A stretch of DNA of 64,000 nt from Gammaproteobacteria bacterium (GTDB lineage Bacteria; Pseudomonadota; Gammaproteobacteria; Ga0077536), in assembly GCA_963662545.2 (NCBI GenBank), contig CAXXLL010000003.1, positions 1,568,001 to 1,632,000 of the forward strand, given 5' to 3'. The notes below the pieces were generated by a model. That model worked only from the letters and a program-made list of their open reading frames with translations. It was not told the origin of the DNA and ran no database searches. The translations under genes and the position numbers were made by a program. Of this stretch, positions 26,257-60,204 are shown in pieces (the first letter of the stretch is position 1; every line of letters starts with the position of its first letter).

Positions 26257-27738
26257 TCATTGCGCGCCGTGGCGCCGCGATTTGATAGCGGCGAGCACGA
26301 CGACCAGGAGCAGAACGGCCAACAAGGGGCGATCCCCCAACCGCGTGTAGGGCGTGACGCCGGTACGCGGGATCAAGCCGGCACGCAGGCTGTTCGGTTC
26401 GAACTGCGCCGACTTAGCGACGATTTTTCCTCGATGATCGATCACCGCCGTGATGCCCGTGTTCGTTCCGCGCAGCAGGTACCGCCCTGTCTCCAGCGCC
26501 CGCATGCGCGCGATTTCCAGATGCTGGTGCGGCGCGATCGTGTCGCCAAACCACGCGTCGTTACTAACGTTAACCAGAAAAGCCGCGCCCGGCAGCGCGC
26601 GCGCGATCTCGCGGGGAAAGGCATCTTCGTAGCAAATCGAAAGACCCGCCGCATACCCGGCGACGGTGACCGTGGTCTGATCCTCCCGGCCGGGCGTGAA
26701 ATCGGACATCGGAATATTCAACAGGCGCGAGAGATCGCGCATGAAACCTTTTAAGGGGAAGACCTCCCCGAACGGGACCAGATGCCGTTTGTCGTAGCGG
26801 CCCGGCGTGGAACCCAGGTCGATGATGCTGTTGAAATAACGCTTGTTCCACGGCTCACCGGACAAGATGCCAATCAGGAGATCCGTGTTCGTTTCGCTGG
26901 CCCGGTCCTGCAGCGCTTGAATAGTCTCCGGCACTTCAAAGGGAAAAGCCGGGATCGCAGTCTCCGGCCAGATCACGATATCCGCGTCCCAATGCGGTTC
27001 CGTCAGGGATTGATAAAGTTCGAGTGTCGGTTGACGCACGTCATCGTGCCACTTAATGGCCTGTGGGACGGCGCCTTGCACGAGGACGACTGTGAGTTTC
27101 GGACCCGCGGCCCGAGTCCAGTTTATATGTGTCAGCCGCTCACCACCTATCACGATCGCCCCGATAGCGATTGCGAACGCGACGCGAACCTTCAAAGTGC
27201 TGAAAACGAAGGCAACGACGGCGGCGGCGATTACGACGACCACCAGCGAGCAGCCGTAAATGCCGACGATCGGCACGAACCCGGCCAAGGGAGAATCGAT
27301 CTGACTGTATCCCAAGGACAACCATGGAAATCCGCTGAAAAGGGTCGCGCGAAGCCACTCCGCGAGGACCCACAACGCAGGCGCTGAAAAAATCAAGCGA
27401 CCGGTCTCCTGGCGCGGCGAGTGAGCGTTCATCACGCCTGCGAACAGGGCCGGATAACAGGCCATACCCGCGATCAATACGGCTGTAACGCTTACCGAGA
27501 ACGCGTAGTACGGGACGCCGAATTGATGAATACTGACCTGCACCCACCAGACGCCGCAACCGAACATACCAAGCCCGTATAGCCACCCTGCGAGGGCCGC
27601 GCGCGACATACTGATTCCGCGGATGACGAGCAACAGCACGACCGGGGAAACAATCGCTACCGGCCATATGCCGAACGGCGCGAACGCAAGCGGCAAAATC
27701 GCACCGCCCGCTATGGCTGCCAGATAACGCTGCCACAT
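26257..27738 (-). CDS. lnt: Apolipoprotein N-acyltransferase
   Basis: LAFAPF, GFPWLSLGYSQ, IWPETA, YDKRHLVPFGE, SICYE, NVSNDAWFG, RMRALE. Confidence 0.97.
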   Translation of the reverse strand: MWQRYLAAIAGGAILPLAFAPFGIWPVAIVSPVVLLLVIRGISMSRAALAGWLYGLGMFGCGVWWVQVSIHQFGVPYYAFSVSVTAVLIAGMACYPALFAGVMNAHSPRQETGRLIFSAPALWVLAEWLRATLFSGFPWLSLGYSQIDSPLAGFVPIVGIYGCSLVVVVIAAAVVAFVFSTLKVRVAFAIAIGAIVIGGERLTHINWTRAAGPKLTVVLVQGAVPQAIKWHDDVRQPTLELYQSLTEPHWDADIVIWPETAIPAFPFEVPETIQALQDRASETNTDLLIGILSGEPWNKRYFNSIIDLGSTPGRYDKRHLVPFGEVFPLKGFMRDLSRLLNIPMSDFTPGREDQTTVTVAGYAAGLSICYEDAFPREIARALPGAAFLVNVSNDAWFGDTIAPHQHLEIARMRALETGRYLLRGTNTGITAVIDHRGKIVAKSAQFEPNSLRAGLIPRTGVTPYTRLGDRPLLAVLLLVVVLAAIKSRRHGAQ

Positions 27739-27788
27739 ATTTTGATCCGACTCTTATCGCGGCCGCGACTGTCGATGCCAGCCGCCGC

Positions 27789-28002
27789 TCATAGGTAGGA
27801 ATTTAGAGCTAGCACGGATACGCAAACGGTTTACGGGGCGACACAATAAAATGAAACCACAGAGATCACAGAACACACAGAGAAATACATTATGATTATT
27901 ATCTGTAAGCGGTCTTTTTTTCCTTTTCTCTGTGTCCTCTGTGATCTCTGTGGTTCATTGTGACCGTGTTTGGGGGCTTGGGGGATAAGAACTAACCTAT
28001 GA
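27789..28002. repeat. ~212-bp composite palindromic element, copy 1 (core inverted relative to copies 2 and 3)
   Basis: Outer IR TCATAGGT...ACCTATGA; inner arms AACCACAGAGATCACAGAACACACAGAGAAA / TTTCTCTGTGTCCTCTGTGATCTCTGTGGTT (27855-27955); flanks colinear with 36661-36871. Confidence 0.85.
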
Positions 28003-28009
28003 TCCTCGG

Positions 28010-28882
28010 CTAATTCGAGCCGGCGAGCGGCTCCTTCGGAACCGGTTCTTTACGGATGACTCGTAGGAGGCGAACCCGACGCCTGTCGGCGCGCAAGATC
28101 TTGAATTCGAAATTTGAGAATTCCAGCTCCTCTCCGCGATGGGGAAGATGTCCGAGTTCGTGAATGATGAATCCACCGACCGTTTCGTAATCCTTCGCCT
28201 CCCAGTTTGTTTGGAAATATTCGTTGAATTCTTCTATCGGTGTACGCGCTTTCACCGTGTAACGGTCGTCGCGGTGGCGCTTGATGTTGTCCTCTTCCGC
28301 CGGATCGTGTTCGTCATCGATCTCACCGACGATTTGCTCGATCACGTCCTCGATGGTAACAAGACCTGAAATACTGCCGTATTCGTCGACAACTATCGCG
28401 AGGTGATTTCTCCGTTCGCGGAATTCCCGCAGGAGAATGTTCAAGCGTTTGCTTTCCGGCACGAAAACGACTGGGCGGATCATATCTCGAATAACAAATT
28501 TGTTTTGCGTATCGGCAGCCAGGGACAACAGGTCCTTGGCAAGCAATATACCGAGAACATGCTCGCGCTTGTCATCATAGACAGGGAATCGTGAATGCCC
28601 GGAATCGATAATTTCCGGAAGAAATTCGGCGGGCTTCGAGTCTTCCTCGATAAATACAATCTCGGATCGGGGAACCATGATGTCGCGTACCTGAATTTCC
28701 GACACCAGCAGCGCGCCTTCCATCATCGCAACGGTATCCGTGTCGATGACGTGCCTTTCTTCGGCGTCATGCAGCTTGTCAACGAGCTGCATTCGATTAT
28801 CGCGCCTGACTCTGACGGCGCTCAGAAGGCGTCGAAATAACGCCTGTATCCGCCGGGGTCCCCTCGATTGACCGTCGGTCAT
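28010..28882 (-). CDS. corC: CBS/CorC domain Mg/Co transport-associated protein
   Basis: VRDIMVPR, SGHSRFPV, HLAIVVDEYG, TIEDVIEQIVGEI. Confidence 0.93.
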   Translation of the reverse strand: MTDGQSRGPRRIQALFRRLLSAVRVRRDNRMQLVDKLHDAEERHVIDTDTVAMMEGALLVSEIQVRDIMVPRSEIVFIEEDSKPAEFLPEIIDSGHSRFPVYDDKREHVLGILLAKDLLSLAADTQNKFVIRDMIRPVVFVPESKRLNILLREFRERRNHLAIVVDEYGSISGLVTIEDVIEQIVGEIDDEHDPAEEDNIKRHRDDRYTVKARTPIEEFNEYFQTNWEAKDYETVGGFIIHELGHLPHRGEELEFSNFEFKILRADRRRVRLLRVIRKEPVPKEPLAGSN

Positions 28883-34969: not shown

Positions 34970-35045
34970 GCTCCCTTCGTCTAGTGGCCCAGGACGTCGG
35001 CCTCTCACGCCGAAAACAGGGGTTCGAGTCCCCTAGGGAGCGCCA
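34970..35045 (+). tRNA. tRNA-Glu (anticodon CTC), CCA encoded
   Basis: 76-nt cloverleaf GCTCCCT...AGGGAGC-GCCA; anticodon arm TCGGC-CTCTCAC-GCCGA; T arm AGGGG-TTCGAGT-CCCCT. Confidence 0.95.
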
Positions 35046-36151
35046 TCTTCACCGGACCTGCAGTCCTCCCCCCAAGTGCCCTCACAAACATGCGAATCGG
35101 CGATCACGACCGCGGGGGCCGGATACAAAGTCAAATCGTCTTTCAGCCATGCAGCATTATCTAATTTAAAACGATTGCGCAGCTTTGACTCGAACGGCGC
35201 CGCCGCTAGTCCTACGCTGTGACCGCTACGATGCCGATCGATCAGCATTGCGATCGCGAAGGCAACGAGATCCGGCTGTTCGATATGAACGTAATGACCG
35301 CTGATCCCCGCCACAAGATGGGCTGACACTGGGCTAGAGGCCGCCAGATCTACCTGGAGTTCGAGCCAGAGCTTCTCGATAAGAAACCGCTTGGCGCTAT
35401 GTTCTCCTTCGATCCTTCCGCGGGTAATTACGATCAGGGGTAAATCGCGCAATGGCTTTGAAGTCCTTATCTGACGCCCACTGTCACGGAAATTTAATAG
35501 TTCGCTCGCCAGCGTGCGGCGCATTTTCCAGTGTCCGGACCGCTGGATCACCCTTCGTTTAAGGTCGTCGGGCAAGCGAACGTGCGGCGGCGGCGGTTCG
35601 CGAAACTGAACAATGCCATAACGGGTACTCGGCGCGGTGGTCATGTTCAGAGGCGGAGCAAGAAAGCGTTCGACCTGATCCGGATGCGATGCGTCGATTA
35701 ACACGAGGCCGGCACTTAGATAGGGATATCTGCGCGCGAACAACTGCATGTTGTATCCGCCGAATGAATGTCCGACGAGGATGAACGGAGGCGACACCGA
35801 AGCTTCGTTCAAAAGGAGAAACAGTTCGTTTGCGATCCGTGAACTGGTGCGCGGCATGGGTCCCATATCACTCTTGCCGTAGCCCGCACGATCGTAGGTG
35901 CAGACTTTAGTAATTTCACGTAATCGCTGGCTCACGAAAATCCATTCGAGAGACGAACCACCGAGGCCGGAGTCCATAATCACCGTCGGCGTGTCGTATC
36001 CTTCGCAAGAAATCTGCAGACGATAATTGTCAATGAAGATATGATCGACGTCGGCCGTGCTTGCAGAGGTAGCAATCAGTGCCAGCGCCGCAGTGACAAG
36101 TGAGCGCTCCGGGCTTTTGGCAAGGCGCATATTCGAGCTCTCTAATGCCAT
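35033..36151 (-). CDS. Alpha/beta hydrolase, probably exported
   Basis: YDRAGYG, nucleophile elbow GHSFGG, GHYVH; hydrophobic leader; start uncertain (36151 or 36130). Confidence 0.85.
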   Translation of the reverse strand: MALESSNMRLAKSPERSLVTAALALIATSASTADVDHIFIDNYRLQISCEGYDTPTVIMDSGLGGSSLEWIFVSQRLREITKVCTYDRAGYGKSDMGPMPRTSSRIANELFLLLNEASVSPPFILVGHSFGGYNMQLFARRYPYLSAGLVLIDASHPDQVERFLAPPLNMTTAPSTRYGIVQFREPPPPHVRLPDDLKRRVIQRSGHWKMRRTLASELLNFRDSGRQIRTSKPLRDLPLIVITRGRIEGEHSAKRFLIEKLWLELQVDLAASSPVSAHLVAGISGHYVHIEQPDLVAFAIAMLIDRHRSGHSVGLAAAPFESKLRNRFKLDNAAWLKDDLTLYPAPAVVIADSHVCEGTWGEDCRSGEDGAP

Positions 36152-36217
36152 GCGCAAGGTAGATCCATTTCCGCTTATACCACTCTGGGAACATAGCACA
36201 ATAGTGGTCTCGCAATC

Positions 36218-36640
36218 GTGAATTCCGACCATGAATTCGTGTCTTTCCCGCGTCGCCTCGCGGCTTTGCTTTATGACATCGTCGCCGTTTTCACCGTGCT
36301 CTATTTCGCATCTTTCGTGCCGGTATTAGCCGCCGGCGGAGACGCCATCACCCCTGGGAATCCATTATTCGTTATTTACCTCCTGGTGATTGCGTTCGGC
36401 TATTTCGGCCTCTCCTGGACGCGCGGCCGAACGCTCGGCATGCAAGCCTGGAAGCTCGAAATACGCGCGTGCGCAGATACGCGGCGTTTGACCTGGAAGC
36501 AAGCCTTGATTCGCTTCGCGGGCGCCGCACTCTCGATCGCGATTTTTGGTATTGGATATTTCTCTGCATTGACCGATGCTGAAAATCGTACCTGGCATGA
36601 CCGATTATCGAAATCTCGCCTGGTCCGGAAGGATCCGTGA
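36218..36640 (+). CDS. RDD family membrane protein
   Basis: RRLAALLYD, GRTLGMQAW, ALIRF, WHDRLS; usual neighbour of lptG. Confidence 0.9.
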   Translation: MNSDHEFVSFPRRLAALLYDIVAVFTVLYFASFVPVLAAGGDAITPGNPLFVIYLLVIAFGYFGLSWTRGRTLGMQAWKLEIRACADTRRLTWKQALIRFAGAALSIAIFGIGYFSALTDAENRTWHDRLSKSRLVRKDP

Positions 36641-36660: not shown

Positions 36661-36871
36661 ACATAGGTCGGATCTTAGGGATTGAACTGACACGCAGACG
36701 CACGACGGAGCGACAAAAAAATATAACCACGGAGAACACTAAGAACACGGAGTAAAGTAATAAATGACCGTCTACATACCTTATTTTACTGTTTAGCTTC
36801 GTGTTCTTTGTGTTCTTCGTGGTTCATTGCGATTGCATTGCGGAACTGTGAGCTTAAGAACTAACCCATGA
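36661..36871. repeat. ~212-bp composite palindromic element, copy 2
   Basis: Outer CATAGGTCGGATCTTA...TAAGAACTAACCCATG; inner arms AACCACGGAGAACACTAAGAACACGGAG / CTTCGTGTTCTTTGTGTTCTTCGTGGTT (36725-36824). Confidence 0.85.
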
Positions 36872-36932
36872 GCGCGCCTATTGCACGAAGGCGGGCTAGC
36901 CCATTGGTGAGCAAGTCCAGACCGCGAACGCG

Positions 36933-37997
36933 CTATAGCGTTCGATAATTCAGTACGACGCCGATCGTGAACATCGCCAGGGTCGGGCCCATGGCGCTGA
37001 CGACGGCGGGTGTGTTGAATACGATGCCTAGATGTCCCGATGCCTGATTGAGAACGTGAAAGGTAAGGCCGATCAATGCGCCGACCATGATGCGCCGACC
37101 GATGGAAACCGAACGCGAACCGCCTAATACCAATGGAATGGCCAGGAATACCATGACGGCCGTTGCCAGTGGATATCCCATCTTGACCCAAAGTGCATGC
37201 TCATAACGCTGCGCGCTCTGTCCGCTATCACGAATAAAACCGACATAACGAACGAGGTCAATGAGTGACAGGCTGTCGGGGTTGATCGCCACCATGCCAA
37301 TCAATTCCGGATCGAGAAGTGAGTCCCAGATCGCTTTCTCGATATGGCGTGATTCTGTCGCCACTTCCTTGAACGAGGTTTGCATGATGTTCCGGAGCTC
37401 CCAGCGCCCTCGCTGATAATGTGCGGACTCCGCGTGAGTCGCCGTTCTGAGCCGATTATCGGCATCGTACTCGTAAATATTTATGTCGCGGAATTGGTCA
37501 TTAGGCAGCACTTCTCGGATGTTGATATAGCTGTTCCCATCCCGTGCCCAAAATCCTTTTTCCGACCGCTGCGTTATCCGGCCATCGATGGCTGAGGAAC
37601 GATATTCGCGCGCATAACGTTCCGCTGGCGGGAAGAGCAACTCCCCGATGATCACGGCAAGTACGGCAAAGAACAGCCCGGCTTTCATGACCGACCAGAT
37701 GATTCGAAGTTTGGAAACACCCGCGCAGCGAACCACTGGTATCTCATTGGTCTCCATCATCGAACCGAGTCCAAGCAGTGCGCCGATCAGCGCCGCAATC
37801 GGAAAAAGTTCATAGGCCAATCCGGGGGCGCGTAAGAGAACAACCGTACATACCTGCCCGAGACCATATGAACCACGGCCAATCTCTTCGAGTTCATCGA
37901 TGAACGTGAAGAATAGGAAGATCGCCAGCAGAACAAACATCACCGTAAGCGTCGCCGAGATCACAGCGTGACCTATATAGCGATCTAAGATCTTCAT
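36933..37997 (-). CDS. lptG: LPS export ABC transporter permease LptG
   Basis: MKILDRYIG, FFTFIDEL..IGRGSYG, FPIAALIGALLGLG, GFWARDG; 6 TMs plus periplasmic domain. Confidence 0.9.
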   Translation of the reverse strand: MKILDRYIGHAVISATLTVMFVLLAIFLFFTFIDELEEIGRGSYGLGQVCTVVLLRAPGLAYELFPIAALIGALLGLGSMMETNEIPVVRCAGVSKLRIIWSVMKAGLFFAVLAVIIGELLFPPAERYAREYRSSAIDGRITQRSEKGFWARDGNSYINIREVLPNDQFRDINIYEYDADNRLRTATHAESAHYQRGRWELRNIMQTSFKEVATESRHIEKAIWDSLLDPELIGMVAINPDSLSLIDLVRYVGFIRDSGQSAQRYEHALWVKMGYPLATAVMVFLAIPLVLGGSRSVSIGRRIMVGALIGLTFHVLNQASGHLGIVFNTPAVVSAMGPTLAMFTIGVVLNYRTL

Positions 37998-38156
37998 TTG
38001 CACCATGGGCGTGCACCGTGATGAGTCAATTCATGCGGCTCTTTGCGCCTCAAGACGCAAAAGAATACACTGCGATCCGGTCGGGCGCAGCCTCTACCTA
38101 TTGCGCCGGCCTCCCTTTTCAGTTGTTGAAATGGACTACTCACGGCGAGGAAAGCT

Positions 38157-58653: not shown

Positions 58654-60075
58654 ATGACCGTTCAAAGCCAAACATCGAATAAGCCCACGATTGCCATCGT
58701 CGGGCGTCCCAACGTCGGTAAATCAACCTTGTACAACCGCCTAACGCGATCGAGAGATGCGCTCGTTGCAGACGTGCCTGGATTAACGCGTGACCCCAAG
58801 GTCGGAGTCGGACGCCTCGGAGAGGCAGGATATATCGCCGTTGATACCGGCGGCATCGACGATGCAGCGTCTGATGAACTGAGTCATATCGTTGCCCGAC
58901 ATGCGCTGGACATTGCACGTGACTGCGACGCCGCCATTCTGATGGTCGACGGTCGCGCCGGAATGAATGCAAGCGACCAGCAGCTGGCGCGTAATATGCG
59001 CAAGGCAGGCGTGGAAATCTTTCTCGCGGTGAACAAAACCGAAGGTCAGGATCCGGACATTGCCGTGTCCGAGTTTGCCGCAATGGGAATCCCGCACATC
59101 CATGCCATCTCCGCTACACACGGAGACGGCGTTGCCTCGCTGATCGCTGAGATCACGACTGATTGGCCGACGGCCGATATCGATGTCGACGACGCTCCGA
59201 ACGATCGTATCCGCGTAGCGGTCATCGGGCGTCCGAACGTCGGAAAATCGACGCTGGTCAACCGATTATTGGGGCAGGATCGCATGATAACCTGCGATGT
59301 TCCTGGTACGACGCGTGACAGTATCGATTCTGATTTCGAACGCGACGGCCAGGCATATACTGTGATCGATACGGCTGGGCTGAGACGCAAGCGCCGCGCG
59401 CGGGGCGTCGCCGAAAAGTTCAGCGCGATTCAGGCCCTTCAGGCGCTCGAGCGGGCTCAAATCGCGTTGCTCGTACTCGACGCGCGAGAGTCGGTCACTG
59501 ATCAGGATCTCAACTTGCTTGGCATGATCATCGATGCCGGGCGCGCGCTGGTCGTCGCGGTTAACAAGTGGGACGGGTTGAGCGCAGATGTACGTTTACA
59601 GATCCGCCGTGATCTCGACCGCCGGCTTCGATTTGCTGATTACGCGGAAATCCGCTGCATCTCCGCCCTGCATGGGAGCGGCGTCGGTGAACTATTCCCG
59701 TTGATCGTCGCAGCCTGGCGGTCGGCTTTCGTTGCGCCCAAAACCAGCGACCTTTCCAGTATGCTCGAACAGGCGACGGCATCGCATCAACCGCCACTGG
59801 TGCGTGGCAGGAGAATCAAGCTCAGATTTGCCCATCTCGGCGGAAAGAATCCACCGAGAATCGTGATCCACGGCAACCAGATCGATGCGATACCTGGTTC
59901 TTACAAGCGCTATCTCGCCAACTTTTTTCGCGAAAATCTGAGGCTCGTCGGTACGCCTGTTCACCTGGAATTCCGACAAGGGGAAAATCCGTTTGCCGGC
60001 AGGCGAAACAAACTTAACAAACGGCAAATCAACAAACGCCGGCGCCTGATGAGCCACGTCAAACGCAGAAAATAG
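58654..60075 (+). CDS. der: Ribosome biogenesis GTPase Der (EngA)
   Basis: Two GRPNVGKSTL G1 motifs, DTGG/DTAG, NKWD. Confidence 0.97.
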   Translation: MTVQSQTSNKPTIAIVGRPNVGKSTLYNRLTRSRDALVADVPGLTRDPKVGVGRLGEAGYIAVDTGGIDDAASDELSHIVARHALDIARDCDAAILMVDGRAGMNASDQQLARNMRKAGVEIFLAVNKTEGQDPDIAVSEFAAMGIPHIHAISATHGDGVASLIAEITTDWPTADIDVDDAPNDRIRVAVIGRPNVGKSTLVNRLLGQDRMITCDVPGTTRDSIDSDFERDGQAYTVIDTAGLRRKRRARGVAEKFSAIQALQALERAQIALLVLDARESVTDQDLNLLGMIIDAGRALVVAVNKWDGLSADVRLQIRRDLDRRLRFADYAEIRCISALHGSGVGELFPLIVAAWRSAFVAPKTSDLSSMLEQATASHQPPLVRGRRIKLRFAHLGGKNPPRIVIHGNQIDAIPGSYKRYLANFFRENLRLVGTPVHLEFRQGENPFAGRRNKLNKRQINKRRRLMSHVKRRK

Positions 60076-60204
60076 AACCACAGAGGTCGCGGATTAAAAC
60101 AATATAAATATGACCGCTACACGGCCATCTTTTTGTCCCTCTATATTCTCTGTGCTTAATAGCAATTGTATTTGGGAGCTGCGGGATTAAGAATCAGCCT
60201 AGGA
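60076..60204. repeat. Composite palindromic element, copy 3 (left flank missing, degenerate)
   Basis: AACCACAGAG...ATGACCGCTACA...CTCTGTGCTT, then AATAGCAATTGTATTTGGGAGCTGCGGGATTAAGAATCAGCCTAGGA, which aligns with the right flanks of copies 1 and 2; begins right after the der stop. Confidence 0.75.

Follow-up and report, generated by a model that had tools for sequence, protein, structure and literature searches.

An IS4-family miniature element whose internal hairpin occurs in both orientations

What is to be made of a short repeat whose two ends lie colinear in different copies while its centre is turned round? The question is raised by an element at 27789-28002 of the stretch analysed here (the window: 64,000 nucleotides, positions 1,568,001 to 1,632,000 of the forward strand of contig CAXXLL010000003.1, assembly GCA_963662545.2, from a gammaproteobacterium of the lineage Ga0077536). 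A preliminary description, made from the letters alone, had picked out three copies in the window and had seen in them either a small invertible switch carried by a transposable element of the miniature inverted-repeat type (MITE) or an inner mobile hairpin that targets one site of an outer element in both orientations. The three copies are where that description placed them, and they belong to a genome-wide family. We think it probable that the element is a composite MITE of an IS4-family insertion sequence (IS) in which rare, passive flips of the centre, mediated by its inverted repeats, were later multiplied, and that it is not a programmed switch.

One family of elements, two orientations of the centre

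A BLAST search with the three copies found 30 loci in the 5.58-Mb genome. Full copies consist of three modules: A, of some 65 nt (TCATAGGTCGGATCTTAGG ... GAGCGACAAAATAAAACC); H, which is the hairpin and measures 85-100 nt; and B, of some 51 nt (GGTTCATTGCGAT ... GCTTAAGAACTAACCTATGA). Each arm of H is built of two or three heptamer units of the CACNGAG type at 9-nt spacing (AACC-CACAGAG-AT-CACAGAG-GA-CACAGAG, for example), and the other arm is the complement. Two subtypes of the 40-45-nt loop exist: type I reads ..AAAAAGACCGTTTACAGGTCACAAGATAATGG.. between arms of CACAGAG units, and type II reads ..AAAATGACCGTTTACATGCCATATTTTAC.. between arms of CACGGAG/CACTAAG units. A core motif, GACCGTTTACA, is strongly conserved in the loop, and once the hairpins are oriented by this motif they align end to end throughout the family.

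We call the centre F when, read from A to B, it is A-rich and then gives GACCGTTTACA; its reverse complement is called R. A census with this motif (up to 2 mismatches, flanked by arm units) yielded 15 loci in this genome, the strand of the motif differing from locus to locus when the flanks are held fixed: six are R, among them copy 1 of the window, and nine are F, among them copy 2; one of the F labels is arbitrary, as it belongs to a symmetric chimera described below. In the sister species used for comparison (G002, flanks about 90% identical) a script scored three R and seven F, to which the alignment adds one R (locus L022), giving four R and seven F. Type II elements are all F and type I elements are split. 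Tabulated across the genomic copies in this way, each orientation is frequent; the flipped state is thus shared by many copies, and copy 1 is not a one-off.

The pairwise comparisons agree with this as far as they go. Copies 1 and 2 align over their full length at 67% identity (218 columns), yet the core of copy 1 matches that of copy 2 better as the reverse complement (score 21, p 0.0135) than forward (score 13, p 0.59), which upholds the original observation of a flipped core between colinear flanks. The reverse-complement alignment has 18 of 23 positions identical over AAAGGAAAAAAAGACCGCTTACA, and 27 of 2000 shuffles did as well. That copies 2 and 3 have the same core orientation holds when they are compared directly (forward score 20, p 0.009), whereas copy 1 against copy 3 scores 17 both ways and is uninformative. 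The family-level evidence for the flip is stronger than these core alignments. The features of the window are as follows (C2 and C3 denote contigs of this genome, C3 being the one that holds the window).

27789..28002, plus strand: copy 1, full-length composite MITE A-H-B, centre in R orientation, TGTAAGCGGTC then T-rich
27789..27854, plus strand: module A of copy 1 (A profile match C3:1595789-1595852, E 4e-15)
27855..27955, plus strand: module H of copy 1, long hairpin with arms 27855-27885 and 27925-27955
27952..28002, plus strand: module B of copy 1 (B profile match C3:1595952-1596002, E 1.8e-11)
27781..27788: left target-site duplication of copy 1, decayed, 8 bp, GCCGCCGC
36661..36871, plus strand: copy 2, full-length MITE, centre F, A-rich then GACCGTCTACA at 36766-36776
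60020..60204, plus strand: copy 3, old, left-truncated, arms decayed, centre F, hairpin about 60076-60157

In copy 1 the hairpin arms have three CACAGAG-type units each at the 9-nt spacing; as inner inverted repeats they measure 31 nt and are 94% complementary, with 39 nt between them. In this AT-rich core of about 39 nt the family motif reads TGTAAGCGGTC and occupies 27904-27914. Copy 1 lies between corC/ybeX (28010-28882, minus strand) and lnt (26257-27738, minus strand), downstream of ybeY. Copy 2 has a type II core and CACGGAG/CACTAAG arm units, and lies between lptG (36933-38006, minus strand) and a hydrolase gene (35033-36232, minus strand). Copy 3 overlaps the end of an open reading frame (ORF; 58654-60075), and it does share the right flank of the others, as had been proposed: module B is matched at 60159-60201 (E 2.9e-5).

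Folded in its entirety, the element forms a single long hairpin at -70.3 kcal/mol (z -7.3), which none of 200 shuffles equalled. By script the consensus structure has 17 pairs, 5 of them changed on both sides, a count given little weight because the periodic arms permit shifted registers. An Rfam search of the element returned only generic miRNA-precursor hairpin matches, far under the gathering score. (Within the window, a tRNA gene at 34970-35042, with 62.6 bits, is all that reaches the Rfam gathering score.)

What is the outer element? It is an ordinary MITE of a 1443-bp IS4-family IS in the same genome, an identification that is well supported. A profile search with module B gave 13 weak matches, 12 of them with one identical score, and all proved to be right ends of this IS. 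The terminus of B, GCTTAAGAACTAACCTATGA, is identical to 12 of these right ends; the thirteenth differs in its last base. At the other end, the IS starts with TCATAGGTCGGATCTTA, which is the first 17 nt of module A. Since the right end of the IS holds GCGATTGCATT..GGGAC as well as the terminal GCTTAAGAACTAACCTATGA, module B is that same end after an internal deletion. Copy 1 illustrates both relationships: the first ~30 nt of its module A match the IS left end (TCATAGGTCGGATCTTA...GTTGAA), and its module B comes from the right end (GCGATTGCATT..GGGAC.. then CTTAAGAACTAACCTATGA) with an internal deletion judged by eye to be about 35 bp.

The IS itself is present in 10 full-length copies (e.g. 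G000:C2:440381-441823 and, about 41 kb before the window, C3:1525516-1526940) and several partial ones. It encodes a 434-aa frame that matches DDE_Tnp_1 (PF01609) with 86.3 bits and the IS4-family model NF033592 with 197.8 bits (cut-off 115). Target duplications are perfect 8-bp repeats in nine of the ten copies and agree at 7 of 8 bases in the other; in nine of ten copies TA stands just outside both sides. Taken together, the TA on both sides and the 8-bp duplications give TA-N8-TA as the target. The MITE follows suit: among 11 copies with recognisable termini the 8-nt flanks are at least 6/8 identical in seven, three of these being 8/8. In copy 1 the right partner of the decayed left duplication is TCCTCGGC at 28003-28010, with 5 of 8 bases matching. 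Both parts of the claim that the outer element is a MITE with a terminal inverted repeat of its own are therefore borne out by the parent IS and the matching target duplications; in copy 1 the outer repeat (17 nt, 82%) lies at 27780-27796 and 27995-28011.

Other repeats were noticed in passing. A frameshifted relative of the IS, 72% identical, occurs in a third member of the genus (G001). A second repeated element of ~1.33-1.36 kb, in at least eight near-identical copies, adjoins the IS4 copy used as query (C2:438427-439783); it is unrelated to the IS4 copy and is presumably another IS. A link to the transposases associated with repetitive extragenic palindromes (RAYT and REP, respectively) was considered and dropped: none of the seven PF01797 (Y1_Tnp) loci in the genome holds arm units.

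Movement of the elements and inheritance of the orientation

If the centre were a switch, the same locus should be found in both states. Some copies are shared with the sister species and others are not. Copy 1 has an orthologous counterpart in G002 and none in G001; copy 2 is absent at the orthologous G002 site; copy 3 is common to both species, the G002 ortholog being the better preserved. When 28 G002 loci were mapped back, the flanks of five (L020, L021, L028, L038 and L039) proved to lie within 10 bp of each other here, and at six more this genome is 100-320 bp shorter. MITE copies have thus been gained since the split from the sister species, and the species-specific copies include both F and R cores.

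At all five orthologous pairs shared with G002 (copy 1, copy 3, C3:453219, C2:2370914 and C3:140214) the orientation agrees, although the flanks have diverged by ~10%. The arms of such pairs do change: they gain or lose 9-nt units (C3:453219-453417 against L025; C2:2370914 against L041), and in one pair the extra unit is on opposite arms while the core is unchanged. One apparent case of a recent flip, C3:586738-586939 against L022 (G002:C139), was rejected. The two elements have different target duplications (ACAGCCCT and TTAGCGCA), different core subtypes and opposite core orientations, and are independent insertions 8 bp apart in one intergenic spacer; they accordingly indicate an insertion hot spot.

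The orientation is also distributed over the family as an inherited character would be. On a maximum-likelihood tree built for 25 elements from the flanks together with the core-oriented hairpins (217 columns) it changes three times (bootstrap range 2-4), and none of 500 label shuffles gave so low a number. When the two symmetric chimeras are left out the tree has two changes, and monophyly of the R elements is not rejected (approximately unbiased test, p 0.132). A tree of the flanks alone, to which four decayed copies of this genome and G002 L030 were added (all F by eye), is poorly resolved, with 3 starred branches of 14.

The preliminary description had suggested a search of reads for both orientations at one locus. 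Assembled data gave a single form: three isolate runs, from three studies and under three organism labels, each have one Logan contig over 27500-28300, with 0 differences and no joints. As assembled contigs drop rare variants, this speaks only weakly against an abundant second orientation. A sediment metagenome (X2) has only fragments of relatives at 90-95% likeness, lying on the flanks, and is uninformative on the orientation of copy 1.

Nor are recombinase genes associated with the copies. The resolvase family PF00239 has one match in the genome, with an internal stop, at C2:2551529, far from any copy; tyrosine recombinases (PF00589) have 35 matches, of which only one is within 5 kb of any of the ~29 loci. 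A simple consensus scan, which is a weak test, found 0 promoter-like sites in copies 1 and 2. With the unchanged orthologs and the clustering on the tree, these results tell against the small invertible switch that had been put forward.

Some elements depart from the A-H-B build. One, at C3:44733-44908, is a symmetric chimera rcB-H-B (right end, hairpin, right end), and another, at C2:2196600-2196750, is the converse A'-H-rcA (short left end, hairpin, left end). Both have the appearance of having arisen by strand switching or by an exchange at the hairpin between elements, and their existence means that rearrangement at the hairpin does happen. At C3:1914086-1914148 only module A and an arm stub are left, while the orthologous G002 copy (L034, G002:C23) keeps its hairpin; copies therefore decay by internal deletion.

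Do the arms themselves record the flip? Arm-to-arm likeness within a copy (mean 15.55 of 19) is close to that between copies (14.9), in a comparison blurred by trimming errors. By unit counts and alignment the longer arm is on the A-rich side in 12 copies and on the other side in six, the arms being equal in seven. One orthologous pair swaps its extra unit without flipping the core. This asymmetry cannot place a crossover.

The hairpin arms and the GxxExxY/PDDEXK_3 genes

The alternative of an inner mobile hairpin is upheld in one respect: the hairpin is a separable module, found alone and around a nuclease gene. In the other it is not, as no outer element without a hairpin, and no sign of entry into the MITE on two occasions, was seen. 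Specifically, no element with A joined to B was found in this genome or in G002, and the loci with only A or only B are truncations that retain arm stubs. Outside the MITE, hairpins with these arms around other loops lie at C2:1256473, C2:1523831, C2:2068709 and C3:178123, and in other genera of the bacterial family such hairpins stand alone, directly behind genes, with unrelated loops (L181, L183, L184, L188, L189). Within this genome tandem arm units give 40 matches at ~25 loci, almost all in the MITE family. A 19-nt arm motif (at most 2 mismatches) occurs 27 times in this genome, 30 times in G002 and one to four times in each of 7 other genomes of the 81 searched; the reversed control gave 0. 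In the X2 metagenome the contigs that carry the arm motif (window 27905-27958) sum to a depth of 250-1476, and many different sequences follow it; hairpins with such arms are therefore plentiful in that habitat, far outside this one genome. A looser pattern, CACAGAGN{3,33}GACCGTTTACA, gave 115 stretches from all phyla in a public genome collection; none of 80 fetched had the hairpin, the pattern being too loose to give a distribution.

What else carries such arms? The only PF13366 (GxxExxY/PDDEXK_3) gene of the genome, C3:188660-188947, is set between ..CACTAAGAACACGGAG and CTCCGTGCTCTTCGCGGTT (cassette C3:188552-189013). Type II arms have a 20-nt exact match to the left arm of this cassette, and 0 of 300 shuffles did as well. 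The idea that copies might be found beside a nuclease or recombinase gene thus holds in that the same arms box a PF13366 gene, but as to recombinases only one locus, C3:1054955, is close to one (a tyrosine recombinase gene ~2 kb away). Genes of PF13366 were found in 11 of the 81 genomes; of ten genes examined, seven have both arrays, one has one array and two have none by pattern. The gene is present in six of the nine genomes with the arm motif against five of the 72 without it, the kin among these genomes not being independent.

The MITE arms are of the same kind as those that box nuclease genes, and the centre of the MITE is accordingly a gene-less passenger hairpin of that class. The cassette in this genome is probably inactive to judge from its protein sequence, since it is without two residues kept in seven of eight aligned relatives and its C-terminus has diverged. 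No PF13366 gene was found in G002. Two further candidates failed. Derivation of the MITE loop from the nuclease gene by internal deletion has nothing in its favour, loop-only alignments being no better than shuffles (p 0.25-0.97, six copies), and a 23S_rRNA_IVP four-helix-bundle gene, tried as arm cargo, is represented by a single gene (C2:313692-313994) without arms.

Explanations, and comparison with known systems

On the explanation that we favour, a composite IS4 MITE with passive flips, the centre would have changed orientation once or a few times in the history of the family. The flip would be an accident of the long inverted repeats: a polymerase might switch templates, or recombination between the arms of one element might invert the spacer; alternatively, a copy might be repaired from another one aligned in inverse register. 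The IS4 transposase would then have multiplied both isomers. The data do not separate inversion within an element, exchange between elements and inverse-register repair, and the orientation of the core appears to be without evident function.

Several observations sit badly with this explanation and should be stated together. The core motif GACCGTTTACA is more conserved than might be expected of a neutral loop. The trees are built on ~217 short, gappy columns and have only three strongly supported branches; none of 200 bootstrap trees needs one change only, and the number of flips is uncertain, between 1 and 4. The flip itself was not caught, in that no two orthologous or nearly identical copies were found to differ in orientation, and since contigs lose rare variants low-level switching may go unseen. 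Finally, the IS transposase was not found in G002, a 150-contig assembly, despite its many species-specific copies; multi-copy IS often fail to assemble in many-contig assemblies.

Could the hairpin itself be the mobile unit, a gene-less derivative of GxxExxY-nuclease cassettes that homed into the MITE, or was copied into it again, repeatedly and in either orientation? This might happen if the arms broke and were repaired from another hairpin copy in inverse register. The same-arm hairpins outside the MITE, at four loci here and with unrelated loops in other genera, fit this, as do the arms that box PDDEXK_3 genes, the co-occurrence of motif and gene (6/9 against 5/72 genomes) and the summed depth of up to 1476, with many continuations, in the sediment metagenome. 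We nevertheless hold it unlikely: no hairpin-less A-B element was found in either genome, the loop is homologous in both orientations and across the whole family, which bespeaks one hairpin lineage, the hairpin has no flanking direct repeat and its palindrome runs on into A and B, and the orientation is inherited; moreover the sole PDDEXK_3 gene here lacks two conserved residues and G002 yielded none. A bolder version is a long shot: the heptamer-array hairpin would be the substrate of an undescribed GxxExxY/PDDEXK_3 nuclease-and-repeat system that cuts the arms and lets the centre be re-inserted in either register, while the IS4 MITE spreads it. If this were true the element would be a nested, two-system mobile element, with a centre that could be flipped or replaced wherever an active nuclease was present. 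Quite unlikely, too, is an origin of the isomers by recombination between MITE copies at the arms, with A-H-rcA and rcB-H-B as intermediates. Symmetric chimeras of either kind are present (C2:2196600-2196750 and C3:44733-44908), and the two group with the R copy C2:526486 at 94/87 support, but to restore an A...B element would take two successive exchanges, and no large chromosomal inversion with such chimeras at its ends was noticed, no search aimed at one having been made.

A programmed invertible element, with a site-specific recombinase acting on the arms and phase variation between two functional states, would account for inverted repeats around an asymmetric segment, for the frequency of both orientations among copies and for the tyrosine recombinase gene ~2 kb from C3:1054955, and inversion of a MITE is on record, as the part of a review that we consulted mentions for Correia elements (PMC10969869). 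Set against this are the five of five orthologs unchanged over ~10% divergence, the clustering of orientation on the tree, the single-form, joint-free contigs of three runs, a sole resolvase gene that is broken and distant, one of ~29 loci within 5 kb of any of 35 integrase-family matches, and no promoter-like site in the two copies scanned. The segment is also only about 40-100 bp, which, to go by the Hin/Gin and Fim systems, is short for recombinase synapsis. We regard such a switch as very improbable. That the flipped orientation is an artefact of assembly can be practically dismissed: inverted arms of ~30 nt can confuse short-word assemblers, but contigs of three runs span the copy-1 locus with 0 differences, the arms of copy 1 are imperfect (94%) and so resolvable, and the independent assembly of the sister species has the same orientation at all five shared loci.

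If the composite MITE has an effect on its host, the likeliest would be that of a terminator-like hairpin that is followed, behind genes, by T-rich sequence. A crude ORF finder placed a gene on the B side at 21 of 23 loci, and in 17 of the 21 the B end abuts the 3' end of the gene. The MITE often ends exactly 8 nt from a stop codon, as in the window at 28003-28012 (copy 1) and 36872-36882 (copy 2); it is the target TA-N8-TA that puts the IS4 element and its MITE at this distance. Where the neighbouring genes are in tandem, transcription runs from B to A in nine of eleven pairs, and in that direction the hairpin gives way to the T-rich beginning of module A, read in reverse (TTTTATTTTATTG). Among these nine the core is F in five and R in three, the last being a core-less remnant. 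The hairpin and T-tract resemble a terminator and their placement may be selected, although the 9/11 bias is only suggestive. A simple terminator scan of copies 1 and 2 found 0 sites, with a loop limit of 3-8 nt that excludes so large a hairpin; as the scanner cannot see the large loop, the idea depends on the orientation bias and the T-tract. Such placement could affect read-through in operons, for example between corC and lnt.

Locally, then, this is ordinary selfish DNA. Its wider interest is partly a caution: an element present in two internal orientations can mimic a phase-variation switch even though the orientation is inherited and rarely changes. It also indicates that the cargo of a MITE can be a structured module of foreign origin; in the present case this is a hairpin belonging to the class found boxing genes of the orphan family GxxExxY. 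No description of this composite element was found in the full-text searches made (supplements excluded); among the matches listed for arm 10-mers all were unrelated to judge by title and abstract, apparently oligonucleotide or other sequence strings.

How does the element compare with known systems? Like other IS4-family MITEs it shares identical termini, and an equal 8-bp duplication, with an autonomous IS of its own genome, and it is non-coding, ~200 bp long, intergenic, present in dozens of copies and polymorphic in its insertions between species; unlike them it has as its centre not leftover IS but a foreign heptamer-array hairpin, in both orientations. Invertons (Hin, Gin, FimB/E) resemble it in that inverted repeats flank a segment seen in two orientations, but here no recombinase is nearby, no promoter-like site was seen in the scanned copies, the segment is far shorter and the orientation is fixed at each locus. 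REP/REPIN sequences with RAYT, and the mosaics of bacterial interspersed mosaic elements, likewise consist of intergenic palindromic units behind genes in modular arrangement; the arms here, however, are periodic heptamer arrays and not REP-type palindromes, and the Y1_Tnp loci are without arm units. The GxxExxY/PDDEXK_3 cassettes that we examined share the arms, in which a 7-base motif recurs every 9 nt in inverted arrays, whereas the hairpin of the MITE has a conserved non-coding loop of 40-45 nt and is spread by an IS4 MITE.

Two other cases of sequences reported to turn round are taken here from sources consulted in part. The Correia elements of Neisseria, for which the prokaryotic MITE review cited above refers to Elbeyioglu 2017, are also small intergenic MITEs in which a segment between inverted repeats is found inverted. 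As described there they invert between their terminal repeats, while in the present element, which is unrelated in sequence, the termini stay fixed and an internal hairpin is turned. The other precedent comes from template switching between inverted repeats, which homogenises the arms and inverts the spacer (PMC8604942), and from the inversions flanked by stem-forming inverted repeats in non-coding chloroplast DNA, which for Paeonia were interpreted as highly homoplasious (PMC2903610, where Kelchner and Wendel 1996 is cited). In these minute inversions, as in the MITE, a short loop between stems is reverse-complemented among relatives without a recombinase. The chloroplast cases, as far as those accounts go, are single loci in a phylogeny, whereas here the inverted form is borne and multiplied by a transposon and the orthologous loci have stayed unflipped over ~10% divergence.

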